From contig OZ250169.1 in the NCBI GenBank assembly GCA_965237955.1, positions 4,992,001-5,056,000 on the forward strand: DNA of 64,000 nucleotides, written 5' to 3'. The position numbers and the translations under genes were made by a program. This DNA is from Candidatus Marinacidobacterales bacterium. Its GTDB lineage: Bacteria > Acidobacteriota > Vicinamibacteria > Marinacidobacterales > SMYC01. Shown here in pieces: positions 57,199 through 64,000 of the stretch. How positions within the stretch are numbered: position 1 is the first letter of the stretch; every line of letters starts with the position of its first letter. A model generated the notes under the pieces. It searched no databases and was not told where the DNA came from. It was given only the letters and a program-made list of their open reading frames with translations.

Positions 57199-58948
57199 GT
57201 GATGGGAGCCGTTCGCAGCTCCGGGGGCCGCGCCGTGCGCGCCACGGTCCTCATGGTGGTGCTCTACGCCTTGGCGCACCCGCTCGCGAACACCGCGACG
57301 GCTCAGTCGGGTTGTTTCATCCAAACTCCCGTCGGTGCCGGCGATAACGAGGCACTTGCCGTTGCGCTCCAGGCCGACGGCAAGATCGTTGTCGCTGGAT
57401 ACAGCTTCAACGGCGTGGATGAGGATTTCACGGTCATCCGCTACAACGTTGACCTTAGCCTAGACACGTCGTTCGGTGGTACCGGGATCGTGGTGACGCC
57501 TATCGGTGTAGGAAACGATCGCGCCCGGGCTGTCGCGATCCAGTCGGACGGGAAAATCGTCGCTGCCGGCTCCGCCTTCAACGGAACCGACGACGACTTC
57601 GCCGTCGCTCGCTACAATCCGGACGGGAGCCTGGATGCCTCTTTCGGCACGGGTGGAGTGTCCACCCAATCCATTGGCGCCCAAGACCAAGCACACGGCG
57701 TCGCGATCCAGAGCGACGGCAGGATTGTCGTCGCCGGGCGCGCCTTCATGACCGACGACGACTTCGCCGCCATCCGTTTGAACACCAACGGAACTCTCGA
57801 CACGTCTTTCGACGTCGACGGCATCGTGACGACCTCTATTGGACCTGCGTGGGATATCGGGCGTACCGTTGCGATCCAACTCGATGGCAAGATCGTCGTC
57901 GGTGGCTACTTTTGGAATCTCGTCGACTTGGATCTCGCCCTCGCGCGCTACAACCCAGACGGGAGCCTGGATACGTCGTTCGACGGCGATGGCATCGTCA
58001 CCACATCCTTCAGTACCCGGGACGAAACCGCGACCGCGCTCGCGATCCAGTCAGACGGCGAAATCCTCCTGACCGGAGCCCAACCGACAACGACTGGATC
58101 CTCGTGCGTTACGACCTGGACGGAAGCCTCGACACTTCGTTCGACGGCGACGGATTCGTAACCACCGCGATCGGAGGTGGAAGCGATTTGGCAAACGCCA
58201 TTGTCGTGCAACCGAACGACGAGATCGTGGTCGCTGGACACAGCGACAACCTCACCAACTTCGATATCGCCGTAGGGCGCTACAAGATCAACGGGAGTCT
58301 CGATGCAACGTTCGGCACCGGCGGCATCGTGACGACACCTCTGCTCTCCGGGGACGACCGCGGTGCCGGGGTCGCCCTCGAGGCCGATGGACGGATTGTC
58401 GTCGTGGGGTACACGGACGACGCCGATCGAGATCACGCTCTGGTTCGCTACGAAAAAGACGGCAGTCTAGCCTGTGGGCAAATAAGCCTTCATCCAACCG
58501 GGAACGGCTCGATCAACACCTTTACGATTGTCAGTGGCTGTGCTCCGGACAACTGGGACTGCGTCAACGATCAGCCGGGAAACGCTGGCAGCGGTCCGGC
58601 CGTCGCGAACGACGGGCTCACGAGCTATCTCGAAGACGGTGACGGCGATACCAACCGGGAGATGTTCGCCTTGGACGACGGCACCGTTCCGCTCGGCGCC
58701 ACGATTGTCGAGCTCGAGATCCGCGCCCAAGTCGGGAACCCTGGCGCTCCGAGTCCGACGCTTGGCCTCAGCTATCAGAGAATCGGCTGGGATGGAGCTC
58801 CCGTCGATAGCTCTCCGTTCGGCGTCGGTGTCACTTGCTGTTCGGAGTCGGTCACGTGGACTGTCAGCGGGATCAGCTGGAGCACTGCCGAGCTGGACGC
58901 ACTCGAGATAGGCCTCGTGCACGTCTCCGGTGGTCAGTTACAGGTCAG
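57199..58948 (+). pseudogene. Secreted delta-60 repeat protein truncated by IS110
   Basis: About 7 repeats of Q.DGKIV.AG...DF...RY..DGSLD.SF..G; frameshift near 58085; ends at the IS junction. Confidence 0.85.
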
Positions 58949-59015
58949 CTACGCCCTCGGCCGGAGGCCGGGCCTATCAAGTAGGAAACTACCAAAGCTG
59001 GTAGAAAGGTTGTCG

Positions 59016-59174
59016 GTGAAGGCTCCGGCAGCGAGCCCCGTACTGTCATTGGTGCATGATGCCCCAGGGTCAGCTTGGGTCCGAGCCGGCTCCCTATCAT
59101 TGGCGAGGCTTCCAACGAAAGCACTCCCCACGGTCAGAATCCATTCGATCGCCATCTCGGGCCGGAGCCTTCGC
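59016..59174 (+). ncRNA. Bridge-RNA-like structured RNA in the IS110 left end (copy 1)
   Basis: 14-bp closing stem GTGAAGGCTCCGGC/GCCGGAGCCTTCGC enclosing two stem-loop domains, each containing CCCCA(G/C)GGTCAG. Confidence 0.65.
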
Positions 59175-59614
59175 TCACAAAATACACTTGAGGTGAGCGA
59201 ATGAACAAACGAAAGAAGAGCAAAGCGGCGAAGCGTCTCTCACGGAATTCCCTGCCGTCGATACGACCGATGGTAGCGGGCATCGATCTCGGGAGTCGAG
59301 AGCATTGGGTCTGCGGTCCGCAGCTAGCTGATGGTCGGCCGAACGTGCGGGTGTTTTCCACGACAACGCCGGCGCTGGTTGAGCTTGCGGATTGGCTTAT
59401 CGAGCAAGGTGTGGAGTCGGTGGCGATGGAAAGCACCCACGTCTATTGGATTCCGGTTTATGAGTTGCTCGAATCCCGTGGTATCGAGGTCGTTCTTGTC
59501 AACGCTCGGCAGCTGAAGAACGTTCCGGGTCGCAAAACCGATATGCAAGATTGTCAATGGCTGCAGACGTTACACAGCTGCGGACTTCTGCGTGGCTCGT
59601 TTCGCCCGGGGGAG

Positions 59615-61059
59615 GGAGGTGCCCCCACCATAGTTGAAGGTTCGAGGTGGTGGCGGCTCCTGACACATGGTTTACCCGACTTTGGCGTGCTTGTCGAGCG
59701 CTTGATTCTCAGTGACCTCCGCTAACTTCGCTTCGAGGATCGGTAGCGATTGGTATCCAATGATACGACGGAAATTTTTCTCCGTGGCGAGCAGAGCCGA
59801 AGCGGCCCATCTCAGAACCATCTTGCCATTGCGCCAGCGGGTGACGCGACGGGTACGACCTCGCGCACCGCTGAAGCACGACTCGATGATGTTCGTCGAT
59901 CCAAGGCAGCGTTTCAGAGATGCGGGGAGGTCGAGCTCGTTGATGGTGAACATCTCGTCGAGCCCCTCCCGGATGCTCTCCGCCGCCGAGGGGTAGTCGT
60001 CCTCGAGCCACTTCGCCTGTTGCTCCAACCGCGCTTTGCCCTTCTTTGCTGGGAGCTGCCAGGCCGAACGCAGGCTCGCTTGCACTTGCGGCTTCAGCTC
60101 CTGCGGCAGATAACCGAGCACATTGCGCTCCTTGTGCTTCCTGCAACGCTGGACCTTGTTGTGGGTACCGAACACAGCGTCGACGGCGACCCGTAGCGCC
60201 TTGGAGCCATCGATCACGAACAGCCGACACCGCTCTGGGCTCAGGCCTCGTTCGACCAGGTCCTCCAGCAGCGCCTTGCACACTATCTGGTTCTCCGATG
60301 CTCCATCCCGAAGCCCCAGAACATGCTTGTATCCCTCTGTATCTACGCCGATTGCCGCCAGCGCGTGGTGCTCGCCGAAGCGAATCCCGTCCAGGTACAC
60401 GACCGCGATCTCCAGCTCGTCCAGCGGACGCTCCATCAGCCCCTGCAACTGCTCCGCGCTTGCTTCCACGAACTCACGGCTCACCTCGCTCTTGCTAACC
60501 CCTACCGTCTCCGCCATCTCGGGAAGAACCGACGCGTACTTGCGCGTCGACACACCCAGCATCAGGATTTCCCAGATGCGTTGGCTCAGCCGAGACGAGT
60601 TGTTCACCGCTTCGTAGGCAGGAATCGCAACCTCCCCTCCCTCTGCCTTTCCCTTACGCCGCAGACGTGGCCGGCTCACTCTCAACTTCCGCTCCGCAAG
60701 GCTTACTACGCCACCCTGCCGGCCGTGCCAGCGAACATCGCTACCCTTCTTCCCCGGGTGTTTCTCCCCAGCCACACTTTGGGCTGACAGATCCAAGACC
60801 GCTTCGATCGTCGCTCGGCCAGCAACGTCGATCACTTCGTCGATCGCTATCTCGGTTCGCTCAATCGCATCCAAGAACGGCAACAGAGCTTGCCCCTTCG
60901 AGCTCAGTATCTCTCGAAGCTTCTTCCTGTTCTTCGCATCGATGATTTGGTGATTTGACATCGTGGTGGCTCCTTTCTTTTTCCTTCACAGCCGGATTCT
61001 ATCGAACCCGGCCTTAGGAGCCGCCACTCCTAACCTTCAACTATCTCAGGGGCATCTCC
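59615..61059 (-). mobile_element. IS256-family element, 1445 bp
   Basis: 28-bp imperfect IRs GGAG(G/A)TGCCCC..ATAGTTGAAGGTT; 8-bp TSD CGGGGGAG at 59607-59614 and 61060-61067. Confidence 0.95.
59672..60961 (-). CDS. IS256 transposase
   Basis: GVSTR, YLDG, IDGSKAL, QRC..HK.RN, STN.IES. Confidence 0.95.
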   Translation of the reverse strand: MSNHQIIDAKNRKKLREILSSKGQALLPFLDAIERTEIAIDEVIDVAGRATIEAVLDLSAQSVAGEKHPGKKGSDVRWHGRQGGVVSLAERKLRVSRPRLRRKGKAEGGEVAIPAYEAVNNSSRLSQRIWEILMLGVSTRKYASVLPEMAETVGVSKSEVSREFVEASAEQLQGLMERPLDELEIAVVYLDGIRFGEHHALAAIGVDTEGYKHVLGLRDGASENQIVCKALLEDLVERGLSPERCRLFVIDGSKALRVAVDAVFGTHNKVQRCRKHKERNVLGYLPQELKPQVQASLRSAWQLPAKKGKARLEQQAKWLEDDYPSAAESIREGLDEMFTINELDLPASLKRCLGSTNIIESCFSGARGRTRRVTRWRNGKMVLRWAASALLATEKNFRRIIGYQSLPILEAKLAEVTENQALDKHAKVG

Positions 61060-62116
61060 CGGGGGAGTCGATTTGTCGATTACGCTCGATGCACCGGCAG
61101 CGTCAAGAACTAATCGAGCATCGGGACCAAGCCGTCCAATGGATGCAGAAGGCTCTGGACCAGATGAACGTGCAAGTCCACCGTGCGGTGACCGACATTA
61201 CCGGTAAGACCGGAATGCTCATCGTTCGTGCCATCGTTTCTGGCGAACGTGACCCGATGAAGCTCGCCGAGTTTCGAGATCATCGATGCAAGAAAAGCGT
61301 AGACGAAATCGCAGAGCATCTCACCGGCACTTGGCGTGACGAGCATCTTTTCAATCTCGCATCGGCGCTGCGCCTTTACGATGTGCTACAAGCCGAAATC
61401 GAACTCTACGACCAGCGTCTATCCGTGAAGTGGTCATCGAGCTTCAGCCGACCGAGCGCAGACACGACAGTGTGCCCGCTCATCCGAACCCGAACAAGCA
61501 AAGCGCCATGCGGCGCCGCGGCGAGCAGGAACAGCGAACCGAACTGTGGCGTTTTGCTGGATGCGATCTCACCCGCATCGACGGCATCAGTCCCACCACC
61601 GCCGCCATCATCCTCACCGAGATCGGATGCGACCTCTCCGATTTTCCCAGCGAAAAACACTTCGTCTCATGGCTACGCCTCGTTCCACGTCGCCCCATCT
61701 CGGGTGGAAAGCTACTCTACAAACGCCCCAATGGCACCGGCTCCAACCGTATCGCCGGTGCCTTACGCATGGCTGCATTGTCACTCAACCGTTCGAAGAC
61801 CGCACTTGGTGCTTACTATCGCCGCATCGCCCGACGTAAAGACGCTAAAACCGCGATCTTTGCCACCGCAAGAAAGCTCGCTCAGCTCGTCTTCCGCATG
61901 CTCAAATATGGTCACGAATACACAGACATCGGTGCATCTGCCTTCGAGGAGCGCTTTCGCCGAAACCACATCAACGGCTTGCGAAAGGCAGCCGAAAAGC
62001 TCGGCTTTACACTCACTCCCGAGGCTGCTGCAAAGTAGTTTCGGGTCAGCTACGCCCCCGGCCGGAGGCCGGGCCTATCAAGTAGGAAACTACCAAAGCT
62101 GGTAGAAAGGTTGTCG

Positions 62117-62275
62117 GTGAAGGCTCCGGCAGCGAGCCCCGTACTGTCATTGGTGCATGATGCCCCAGGGTCAGCTTGGGTCCGAGCCGGCTCCCTATCA
62201 TTGGCGAGGCTTCCAACGAAAGCACTCCCCACGGTCAGAATCCATTCGATCGCCATCTCGGGCCGGAGCCTTCGC
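62117..62275 (+). ncRNA. Bridge-RNA-like structured RNA (copy 2)
   Basis: Same sequence as 59016..59174. Confidence 0.65.
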
Positions 62276-62301
62276 TCACAAAATACACTTGAGGTGAGCG
62301 A

Positions 62302-63684
62302 ATGAACAAACGAAGGAAGAGCAAAGCGGCGAAGCGTCTCTCACGGAATTCCCTGCCGTCGATACGACCGATGGTAGCGGGCATCGATCTCGGGAGTCGA
62401 GAGCATTGGGTCTGCGGTCCGCAGCTAGCTGATGGTCGGCCGAACGTGCGGGTGTTTTCCACGACAACGCCGGCGCTGGTTGAGCTTGCGGATTGGCTTA
62501 TCGAGCAAGGTGTGGAGTCGGTGGCGATGGAAAGCACCCACGTCTATTGGATTCCGGTTTATGAGTTGCTCGAATCCCGTGGTATCGAGGTCGTTCTTGT
62601 CAACGCTCGGCAGCTGAAGAACGTTCCGGGTCGCAAAACCGATATGCAAGATTGTCAATGGCTGCAGACGTTACACAGCTGCGGACTTCTGCGTGGCTCG
62701 TTTCGCCCGGGGGAGTCGATTTGCCGATTACGCTCGATGCACCGGCAGCGTCAAGAACTAATCGAGCATCGGGGCCAAGCCGTCCAATGGATGCAGAAGG
62801 CTCTGGACCAGATGAACGTGCAAGTCCACCGTGCGGTGACCGACATTACCGGTAAGACCGGAATGCTCATCGTTCGTGCCATCGTTTCTGGCGAACGTGA
62901 CCCGATGAAGCTCGCCGAGTTTCGAGATCATCGATGCAAGAAAAGCGTAGACGAAATCGCAGAGCATCTCACCGGCACTTGGCGTGACGAGCATCTTTTC
63001 AATCTCGCATCGGCGCTGCGCCTTTACGATGTGCTACAAGCCGAAATCGAACTCTACGACCAGCGTATCCGTGAAGTGGTCATCGAGCTTCAGCCGACCG
63101 AGCGCAGACACGACAGTGTGCCCGCTCATCCGAACCCGAACAAGCAAAGCGCCATGCGGCGCCGCGGCGAGCAGGAACAGCGAACCGAACTGTGGCGTTT
63201 TGCTGGATGCGATCTCACCCGCATCGACGGCATCAGCCCCGATACCGCCGCGATCCTACTCACCGAGGTCGGGTTCGACCTCTCTGCCTTCCCCAGTGAA
63301 AATCACTTTGTCTCGTGGCTCCGTCTTGCGCCGCGCCGCCCCATCTCGGGTGGAAAGCTACTCTACAAACGCCCCAATGGCACCGGCTCCAACCGTATCG
63401 CCGGTGCCTTACGCATGGCTGCATTGTCACTCAACCGTTCGAAGACCGCACTTGGTGCTTACTATCGCCGCATCGCCCGACGTAAAGACGCTAAAACCGC
63501 GATCTTTGCCACCGCAAGAAAGCTCGCTCAGCTCGTCTTCCGCATGCTCAAATATGGTCACGAATACACAGACATCGGTGCATCTGCCTTCGAGGAGCGC
63601 TTTCGCCGAAACCACATCAACGGCTTGCGAAAGGCAGCCGAAAAGCTCGGCTTTACACTCACTCCCGAGGCTGCTGCAAAGTAG
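62302..63684 (+). CDS. IS110 DEDD recombinase (460 aa)
   Basis: GIDLG, AMEST, KTDMQDC (RuvC D-E-D-D); catalytic Ser in PISGGK; ARKLA. Confidence 0.95.
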   Translation: MNKRRKSKAAKRLSRNSLPSIRPMVAGIDLGSREHWVCGPQLADGRPNVRVFSTTTPALVELADWLIEQGVESVAMESTHVYWIPVYELLESRGIEVVLVNARQLKNVPGRKTDMQDCQWLQTLHSCGLLRGSFRPGESICRLRSMHRQRQELIEHRGQAVQWMQKALDQMNVQVHRAVTDITGKTGMLIVRAIVSGERDPMKLAEFRDHRCKKSVDEIAEHLTGTWRDEHLFNLASALRLYDVLQAEIELYDQRIREVVIELQPTERRHDSVPAHPNPNKQSAMRRRGEQEQRTELWRFAGCDLTRIDGISPDTAAILLTEVGFDLSAFPSENHFVSWLRLAPRRPISGGKLLYKRPNGTGSNRIAGALRMAALSLNRSKTALGAYYRRIARRKDAKTAIFATARKLAQLVFRMLKYGHEYTDIGASAFEERFRRNHINGLRKAAEKLGFTLTPEAAAK

Positions 63685-63695
63685 TTTCCGGTCAG

Positions 63696-64000
63696 ATTGC
63701 GAAAAACGACGAGCCAGCCAAGTCCCGCTACATCGCCTCCGAGGTTTCGGAGCGGGTGCACGATCGCGCCAATTACCAATGCGAATTTTGCGCCTCTGAC
63801 GGGACGCGATGTAGCTCACGCACCGGACTTCAAATTGAGCATGTGCGACCGTTTGGCATCTTTCGCAGCAACGACGAGCGATTTCTTCAACTCCACTGCC
63901 TCGCACAATGGATTAGCTGCGGAACGCGTCTACGGGGCGGCTTTCATCCAGCGGAAGATTGTTGAACGGCGCAGCCGTCACGGAGCGCGCCGGTGCGCTC
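63696..64000 (+). pseudogene. C-terminal HNH-endonuclease-like remnant
   Basis: VHDRANYQCEF..DGTRC..R..LQIEHVRPF..LHC.AHN..AAERVYG, frameshifted; no N-terminus after the IS. Confidence 0.6.

Follow-up and report, generated by a model that had tools for sequence, protein, structure and literature searches.

An ISPpu9-type IS110 tandem in a Marinacidobacterales genome with a predicted two-loop bridge RNA and ends that may be recognised as one folded strand

The window analysed here is a 64,000-nucleotide stretch of a Candidatus Marinacidobacterales genome (GenBank assembly GCA_965237955.1, contig OZ250169.1, positions 4,992,001 to 5,056,000), and its region 57,199-63,695 contains two head-to-tail copies of an IS110-family insertion sequence, copy 1 at 58949-62049 and copy 2 at 62050-63695. 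From sequence comparison we propose, with a probability of about 0.68, that this element is an ISPpu9-type IS110 with a predicted two-loop bridge RNA, that its ends are likely recognised as one folded strand, and that it inserts at an AG core in 14-base sites resembling an IS110 right end, with the ends of a sister IS110 and likely its own among the targets. An IS256-family element (~59614-61060) divides copy 1, and a TC insertion at 61418-61419 shifts the reading frame of this copy; copy 2 has an intact open reading frame (ORF) for a recombinase of 460 amino acids at 62302-63684 on the forward strand. The left end is 252 nt long and the right end extends only 11 nt past the stop codon. The source genome (G000; 8.13 Mb, one contig, C1) holds seven copies. 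A sequence-only reading had placed GGTCAG at all three junctions of the tandem, where it is found at 58943, 62044 and 63690, and its expectation that other insertion sites carry the hexamer is borne out, since all seven left junctions in the genome end in it. Six of the seven right ends read TAGTTTC-CGGTCAG, and the one at the middle junction reads TAGTTTC-GGGTCAG.

Recombinase, bridge RNA and guides

The recombinase contains the domains PF01548 (DEDD_Tnp_IS110, E 2e-21) and PF02371 (Transposase_20, E 5e-14). Among 16 homologues D29, E77 and D114 are invariant and D117 and S349 nearly so. The predicted structure (predicted local distance difference test, pLDDT, 84) has an IS621-like fold (Foldseek E 4e-12, about 20% identity), the sequence was also aligned to IS621, and Foldseek matches TasR as well (E 7e-4). 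The domains, the DEDD residues with the serine, the fold, the shared core and the lack of long terminal inverted repeats place the element in the IS110 family. The long RNA-bearing left end combined with a short right end assigns it to the IS110 group rather than to the IS1111 group. It departs from the IS110 group in its subterminal repeat, which is described as 2-3 bp (PMC11208160; published work is cited here and below from the available parts of each source) but is 5-9 bp in 46 of 54 related elements. The AG core, the palindrome of the A box and the short B box of ISPpu9-like elements are all present, as judged by eye against the published boxes and the table of 54 elements.

Guides were compared over loci from GTDB contigs (36), relatives, metagenomes (80) and viral contigs (34), with loci of the unpublished genome G027 excluded. 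A pattern built on the RNA boxes only parsed 110 of the 181 hits that included the N-terminus, which gave 79 distinct guide sets. The earlier assignment of one motif as target guide and the other as donor guide was correct. Of 67 elements, 42 carry an exact copy of the loop-1 3' guide in the left flank (permutation mean 1.9); for the loop-2 3' guide, re-parsing gave exact copies at the right end in 56 of 65 (mean 3.8), as for the left guides of IS621-type elements. The guides end in AG in 68 (loop 1) and 72 (loop 2) of 79 elements, from which the exact cut position is inferred, and the base after the loop-1 guide equals donor position +1 in 48 of 54, like the handshake guides of IS621. The same logic applies to a second IS110 family of this genome (family B, 51% protein identity), in which motif 1 equals the left junction in 11 of 11 cases and motif 2 equals the right end.

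On the other side of the core the signal is weaker. The loop-1 5' guide shows complementarity to positions +2 to +4 of the right target, on the opposite strand (z 3.9-4.6; n=50); in this element the match is 2.83 of 5 against 2.0 (p 0.04), and in family B it is not significant. Comparison of the same guide with the left end or the left target gave no signal. The target loop thus appears to read both strands of a duplex, the right side loosely. One relative, L040, has a right end that matches its target guide and not its donor guide, which leaves the same 7-mer on both sides.

The predicted bridge RNA of copy 1 spans 59016-59174 on the forward strand, target loop first and donor loop second, as in the bridge RNA of IS621-type elements. 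The target loop holds the loose right-target guide (5' guide, 59040-59049), the 3' guide GGGTCAG (59067-59073) and a handshake-like CT (59074-59075); the donor loop holds the 5' guide CCTATCA (59093-59099) and the 3' guide CGGTCAG (59131-59137). The bridge-RNA stretch of copy 2 (62117-62275, forward strand; guides at 62141-62150, 62168-62174, 62194-62200 and 62232-62238) shows no differences from it. The two similar 12-mers noted earlier, 59062-59073 and 59126-59137, are both present, but five of their 11 shared letters belong to a conserved box (CCCCA) and not to a guide.

RNAalifold on 20 close homologues predicted a closing stem that encloses two internal loops; a single hairpin caps each loop, and UGG is paired to CC(C)A boxes. 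In this consensus 96% of cells are paired and 13 of 34 pairs are changed on both sides, the structure being derived from the same alignment. The closing stem proposed from the sequence alone (59016-59029/59161-59174) covaries, with 9 of 12 pairs changed on both sides in the 20 homologues, and the fold of 59005-59185 has a z of -2.8. The finer structure of that proposal did not hold up. The GAGCC/GGCTC domain stem and the small hairpin after motif 2 are paired in only 55% and 47% of cells; in the hairpin after motif 1 (91%) and the TGGCGA/TCGCCA stem (90%) no pair is changed on both sides, and neither agrees with the consensus fold. A suggested pairing of CGTA with TACG at the element start occurs in 2 of 54 elements where 2.7 are expected by chance. 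The extra hairpins are thus not conserved; what truly sets the element apart from IS621 is the order of the guides and the distal donor site on the same strand described below. A search of Rfam gave no match at E up to 1. The public runs used here are contigs only, in which uncovered parts are uninformative and which may include the source sample; the five contigs examined from the RNA run X10 did not reach the left end. Taken together, the left end almost certainly encodes a bridge RNA, as predicted from the covariation and the guide matches.

Recognition of the donor ends

The left-end donor arm of copy 1 (58949-58991, forward strand) consists of the right donor CTACG (5 nt), a DNA hairpin, a distal guide-matched site CCTATCA (58973-58979) and the subterminal repeat GAAACTA (58985-58991). 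Copy 2 has the same arm at 62050-62092, with CTACG, the hairpin at 62057-62073, the distal site at 62074-62080 and the repeat at 62086-62092. Its right end (63682-63695, forward strand) is formed by the repeat TAGTTTC, which overlaps the stop codon, and the left donor CGGTCAG, which matches the donor guide 7/7. A canonical right-donor guide, pairing with the top strand right of the core, was looked for across the set and rejected: there was no anti-diagonal signal, and a same-sense distal match appeared instead.

The donor is likely a folded single strand, and several observations point to this. Firstly, the 5' guide of loop 2 (CCTATCA) is identical, in the same sense, to the left-end site at 58973-58979. 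Anchored on the subterminal repeat, the distal site matches the guide in this set at a mean of 5.82 of 8 positions, against 3.56 +/- 0.15 in 5000 permutations (maximum 4.24; n=45); the reverse complement scores 3.36 where 3.36 is expected. The site lies 25-40 nt inside the left end, between the DNA hairpin and the covarying inverted repeat. The signal survives when the set is reduced to 28 elements at 70% identity, 20 at 60% and 10 at 55%, with 5.80 against 3.54 in the 20 elements below 60% protein identity, and the own guide fits better than that of the nearest relative in 38 of 45 elements (three losses, four ties). Two plasmid elements outside these counts match at 5/7 and 4/7 positions by eye. 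Since the distal covariation is on the same strand, both donor guides would pair with the bottom strand.

Secondly, in 46 of 54 elements the pentamer just ahead of the left donor recurs as an exact reverse complement within the left end (chance about 40/1024 per element), in 44 of the 46 at +32 to +46 and mostly at +33 to +36. The variable pairs of this repeat covary (z 3.8-8.2), and across the clade there are at least six different repeat sequences, with both halves changing together. Thirdly, a left-end DNA hairpin of -1.5 kcal/mol or lower is predicted in 41 of 45 elements, against 9 of 45 control windows. When the bottom strand is folded at the repeat, guide position -j lies opposite bubble position j-3, and the loop-2 5' guide on the folded strand has the same register as the loop-1 5' guide on a duplex target. 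This register suggests a folded single-strand donor that mimics a duplex. Pairing of the repeat in folded junctions (45/45) was not used as evidence, since the fragments had been cut at the repeat.

In such a donor, the bottom strand would have two stems, one from pairing of the two subterminal repeats and one from the left-end hairpin, and the open bubble of roughly 12 by 12 bases left over would mimic a duplex site. Copying-out of the element and its insertion through exchange of the bottom strand would follow. In the target, the seven bases left of the guide match would be read without RNA, either by the protein or through DNA-DNA pairing to the left-end repeat. Integron attC sites and the ends of IS200/IS605 elements offer an analogy, as there too a folded single strand is the substrate, although their enzymes are unrelated (tyrosine recombinase, HUH) and use no RNA guide. 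Upstream of the relatives L010 and L017 there are miniature units of about 60 nt, in which a left-end arm is joined to a right-end repeat and donor within 7-nt tandem repeats; by eye, they retain just these end parts. No miniature copies of the present element's left end were found in its own genome.

Several results weigh against this proposal. Compared with its own shuffles, the hairpin reaches z < -1.65 in only 20 of 45 elements. The distal match is 5/8 or less in 19 of 45, and by eye it is weak in family B. The parsed set omits 71 of the 181 hits, and 9 of the 54 elements were dropped before the distal test. A scan over the junction for a sigma-70 consensus promoter found none. An inverted-repeat mutant of the ISPpu9 A box still formed minicircles in end-point polymerase chain reaction (PMC12288879), which means that the hairpin is not strictly needed for excision.

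The same mutant would fit a double-stranded donor, in which the subterminal repeats are symmetric protein-binding sites and the DNA is looped or locally extruded as a cruciform, with no free single strand. Sequence comparison reads a folded free strand and a locally extruded one alike, and the repeat-like flank that also occurs in duplex targets (see below) would suit read-out by protein. On the other hand, the co-changing halves of at least six repeat sequences suit base pairing, and both donor guides still read the same strand; we consider this explanation possible but doubtful. Much less probable is that the distal match is a relic or regulatory and that the donor is recognised by its 7-nt left part alone. 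The match is imperfect in many elements, and half-site recognition is enough for excision of IS621 in vitro (10.64898/2026.08.31.748434), but the covariation persists below 55-60% protein identity and in the register of the target guide.

Target sites and origin of the tandem

The resemblance of the target to the right end of the element, noted earlier for six bases, extends over 14. The left target of copy 1 (58935-58948, forward strand; core AG at 58947-58948) has a 7-nt flank that is 5/7 like the subterminal repeat, followed by AGGTCAG, which matches the target guide 6/7. The genome contains 3700 GGTCAG sites, of which 39 have a flank matching TAGTTTC at 5/7 or better. All five ordinary targets are among these 39, with flank scores of 6, 5, 6, 5 and 6 (about 1e-10 if any GGTCAG served). 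Eight sites have a 7/7 flank and all are IS110 right ends; 26 of the 39 sites are empty. Family B, with unlike guides, also shows a flank bias (mean 4.3/7 in 11 junctions, against 1.9), and thus the flank is not read through guide similarity. The bias is weaker across the clade (3.0 against 2.4 of 7). Since the targets resemble right ends, each right junction rebuilds a near-complete target.

One copy, at C1:4911170, sits immediately at a sister IS110's right end (76% identical in nucleotides), and this junction is present in all four public runs examined. The sister has the loop-1 motif GGACGAG, a left flank ending in GAACGAG and the loop-2 motif GGGTCAG; the target guide of the element is the donor guide of its sister. 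At C1:4904889-4904907 and 4912824 onward, the insertion site of the sister is, by eye, an arm of a 24-bp palindrome right after a stop codon, and the sister itself is interrupted by 4.6 kb with another multicopy element. Reciprocal targeting also occurs elsewhere: L026 and L032 stand on each other's right ends with reciprocal guide match. These two and L025 come from a metagenome-assembled genome of Verrucomicrobia, in which two elements each have a target guide equal to the donor guide of the other. As ends are a few of about 30 good sites, the two of seven insertions at ends show that ends are usable and not that they are preferred.

The middle junction of the tandem (62036-62049, forward strand) combines the repeat TAGTTTC with GGGTCAG, which matches the target guide 7/7 and is also the donor guide of the sister; the G at 62043 is found in no other of the seven right ends. 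The locus is not one split insertion site: the flanks belong to two different genes, a delta-60/DUF5122 repeat gene on the left and an HNH-like gene on the right. The former, a beta-propeller repeat gene at 57199-58948 with an apparent frameshift near 58080, is cut by copy 1; no continuation of it was recognised at the right flank of any copy and no paralogue in the genome, and no empty-site allele was found among 40 relatives. The right flank (63696-64000, forward strand) is the 3' part of the second gene, labelled from its translation; Pfam gave no hit on its 70 amino acids. Three intact paralogues exist, all three with the target of the sister just upstream of the matching position. The sister's end is therefore the likelier landing site of copy 2, as at C1:4911170.

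We thus lean towards a kin-end origin of the tandem. The sister would have entered the HNH-like gene, copy 2 would have landed on the right end of the sister, and copy 1 would have been joined to copy 2 by a subsequent deletion; a crossover within the shared TAGTTTC would leave G at 62043. Two findings tell against this history: the surviving right end of the sister has C and not G at position -7, and among 59 distinct elements only two have the end of another IS110 ORF as left flank.

In the earlier reading copy 2 had inserted at the right end of copy 1 in a single chromosomal site, by way of nearly equal guides. It is true that the own right end is among the top-scoring targets (flank 7/7, guide 6/7) and that position -7 is unconstrained in ordinary targets (A, A, T, G, G). 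Copy 1 is also older, with its frameshift, IS256 insertion and patch, and copy 2 is identical over its full length to another intact copy, which argues against local duplication. But the two flanking genes, the right one being a sister target, do not fit, a deletion would be required anyway, and none of the seven copies provides a further own-end case, so that we regard this origin as unlikely. Nor are near-identical guides enriched (4 of 79 against 1.9, p 0.11), with the limit that the pattern used missed L004, whose two guides are identical by eye. L004 lies between a right-end-like and a left-end-like sequence and is a better candidate for true self-targeting.

It is more improbable still that the tandem arose without end targeting, by integration of a circle or dimer, by homologous recombination or by donor-donor half-match recombination. 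Perfect end-to-end tandems do occur in relatives with differing guides (L042/L065, L205 and L206; one case in G016, two in G033). Also described are 437 tandem duplications of entire IS110 modules (10.64898/2026.08.14.744561), half-match recombination in IS621 (10.64898/2026.08.31.748434) and tandem by-products of CazIS110-1. A circle junction, however, would give C where the middle junction has G, the two copies are different alleles, and such origins would account neither for the sister-type right flank nor for the C1:4911170 copy at the end of the sister.

Mis-assembly, finally, is very improbable. The flanks come from different genes, and no contig bridges the middle junction (62049/62050) by the rule of 31 letters on each side, which also counts against the proposed history. 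A shorter, 44-nt contig in X1 does span 62022-62065, with one other letter, and a contig in X4 ends in the G allele, with the reservation on the source of these runs made above; an end-to-end contig in X1 fits a circle or a tandem junction alike. The copies moreover differ by the IS256 insertion, the frameshift and the sister-derived patch, and the conclusions on guides, targets and donor are independent of this junction.

The broken recombinase gene of copy 1 extends over 59201-62038 on the forward strand. Besides the IS256 insertion and the TC frameshift (codon 256) it carries a patch of 110 nt (~61586-61695) with 99% identity to the sister. The IS256/Mutator-family passenger (59614-61060, reverse strand; ORF 59672-60961) has 34 matches of more than 1300 nt in the genome. 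The TC frameshift occurs in five of the seven copies and is the main allele in three public runs; only copy 2 and the copy at C1:4.255 Mb are intact, and the frameshifted copies have probably moved in trans.

Other families show habits of their own. Family B copies (for example C1:2887221, 2893736, 3883360, 3066923) lie repeatedly in one repeated sequence that resembles an IS256-type terminal inverted repeat. At C1:5882722-5888972, four copies of a third IS110 family (25% identity) make up an array, in which one junction fuses a right end to a point inside the left end that follows. Among the relatives, a subclade with an A-run target guide and an AA core (L205, L206, L213, L043, L096, L142, L217, L218) inserts at AAAAAAA in other transposase genes, by eye a site that we take to serve IS3-family elements for frameshifting; one member of the subclade occurs on many Citrobacter and Enterobacter plasmids. 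Eight others (L058, L094, L095, L097, L106, L113, L120, L151) target palindromes beginning with GTCAT, presumably of the repetitive extragenic palindromic (REP) kind.

Relation to known systems and significance

The closest likeness is to ISPpu9 and MITEPpu9 (ssr9) of Pseudomonas putida KT2440, which share the AG core, the very short right end and the long structured 5' leader (PMC12288879, PMC8450116). By eye, the ISPpu9 A box consists of the core, 5 nt, a hairpin, 12 nt and a repeat at +35 that complements the B box, and the printed ssr9 primer contains a CCCGA box followed by the last seven letters of the B box. ISPpu9 differs in that it targets REP sequences, whereas the present element targets end-like sites. 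PMC12288879 describes the IS110 group as lacking terminal inverted repeats and leaves the A-box palindrome unexplained, and in its sections covered here no guides are assigned.

With IS621 and ISCro4 (PMC11208160, PMC13626964; PDB 8WT6-8WT9, 9T56) the element shares the DEDD and Tnp domains, the fold, a left-end RNA with target and donor loops, a dinucleotide core common to both and handshake-like bases. IS621 differs in its recombinase of about 326 amino acids (460 here), its CT core (AG here), its left guides of 9 nt (7 here) and its flanking repeat of 2-3 bp (here 5-9 bp, about 45 nt apart). Its right donor guide (RDG) pairs with the top strand next to the core, whereas the second donor guide here is same-strand and distal. 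The bottom-strand guide of our element stands second in each loop and carries the handshake bases, unlike what we take to be the guide order of IS621.

Among the end-targeting elements of the IS1111 group, IS4321/IS5075 insert in the repeats of Tn21 and IS1383 in IS1384; they likewise have subterminal inverted repeats, but carry the RNA in the right end; the present element has it in the left end and targets the end of a sister IS110. ISPpu10 (10.64898/2026.03.19.712850) also uses a DNA stem-loop as a layer of recognition beyond guide pairing; its hairpin is in the target flank, and here it is in the donor, with the guide reading past it. TIGR-Tas (PMC12045711) resembles the element in its tandem guides between mutually pairing UG(G) and CC(C)A boxes, as well as in the TasR match, but here there is no array, and a recombinase instead of a nuclease.

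In the literature searched, which was thin on subscription papers and on supplements to preprints, neither a donor guide with a distal site on the same strand nor a target flank resembling the repeat was found described; this clade may be among the 86 bridge-RNA models of 10.64898/2026.10.21.760802. Tandem IS110 arrays are already in print (10.64898/2026.08.14.744561). The same source states that IS110 insertion does not regenerate the target; the nearly regenerated right junction seen here contradicts this statement and sets the element apart from IS621. Mining limited to 25 nt on each side of the core, the window in 10.64898/2026.10.21.760802, would miss the distal site.

A fold-back donor could explain the A box of ISPpu9. 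Single-strand movement of IS110 elements is a matter of open debate (10.64898/2026.08.31.748434; 10.1101/2025.10.25.684509), and a clade whose donor is fully readable only after the strand has folded makes this question testable with few oligonucleotides. For engineering, single-strand cargo is suggested; the donor would need about 60 nt, and targets may need the flank motif. As for the family at large, we see even odds that a large IS110 clade including ISPpu9 recombines a duplex target with a folded single-strand donor under RNA guidance, both donor guides reading one strand, with programmable stems that the element makes itself and a repeat-like flank, acting as a gate comparable to a protospacer-adjacent motif (PAM), that is missing from the guide gene. 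Some members would, on the same odds, parasitise their sisters through a target guide that copies the donor guide of the sister and differs from their own in one base.

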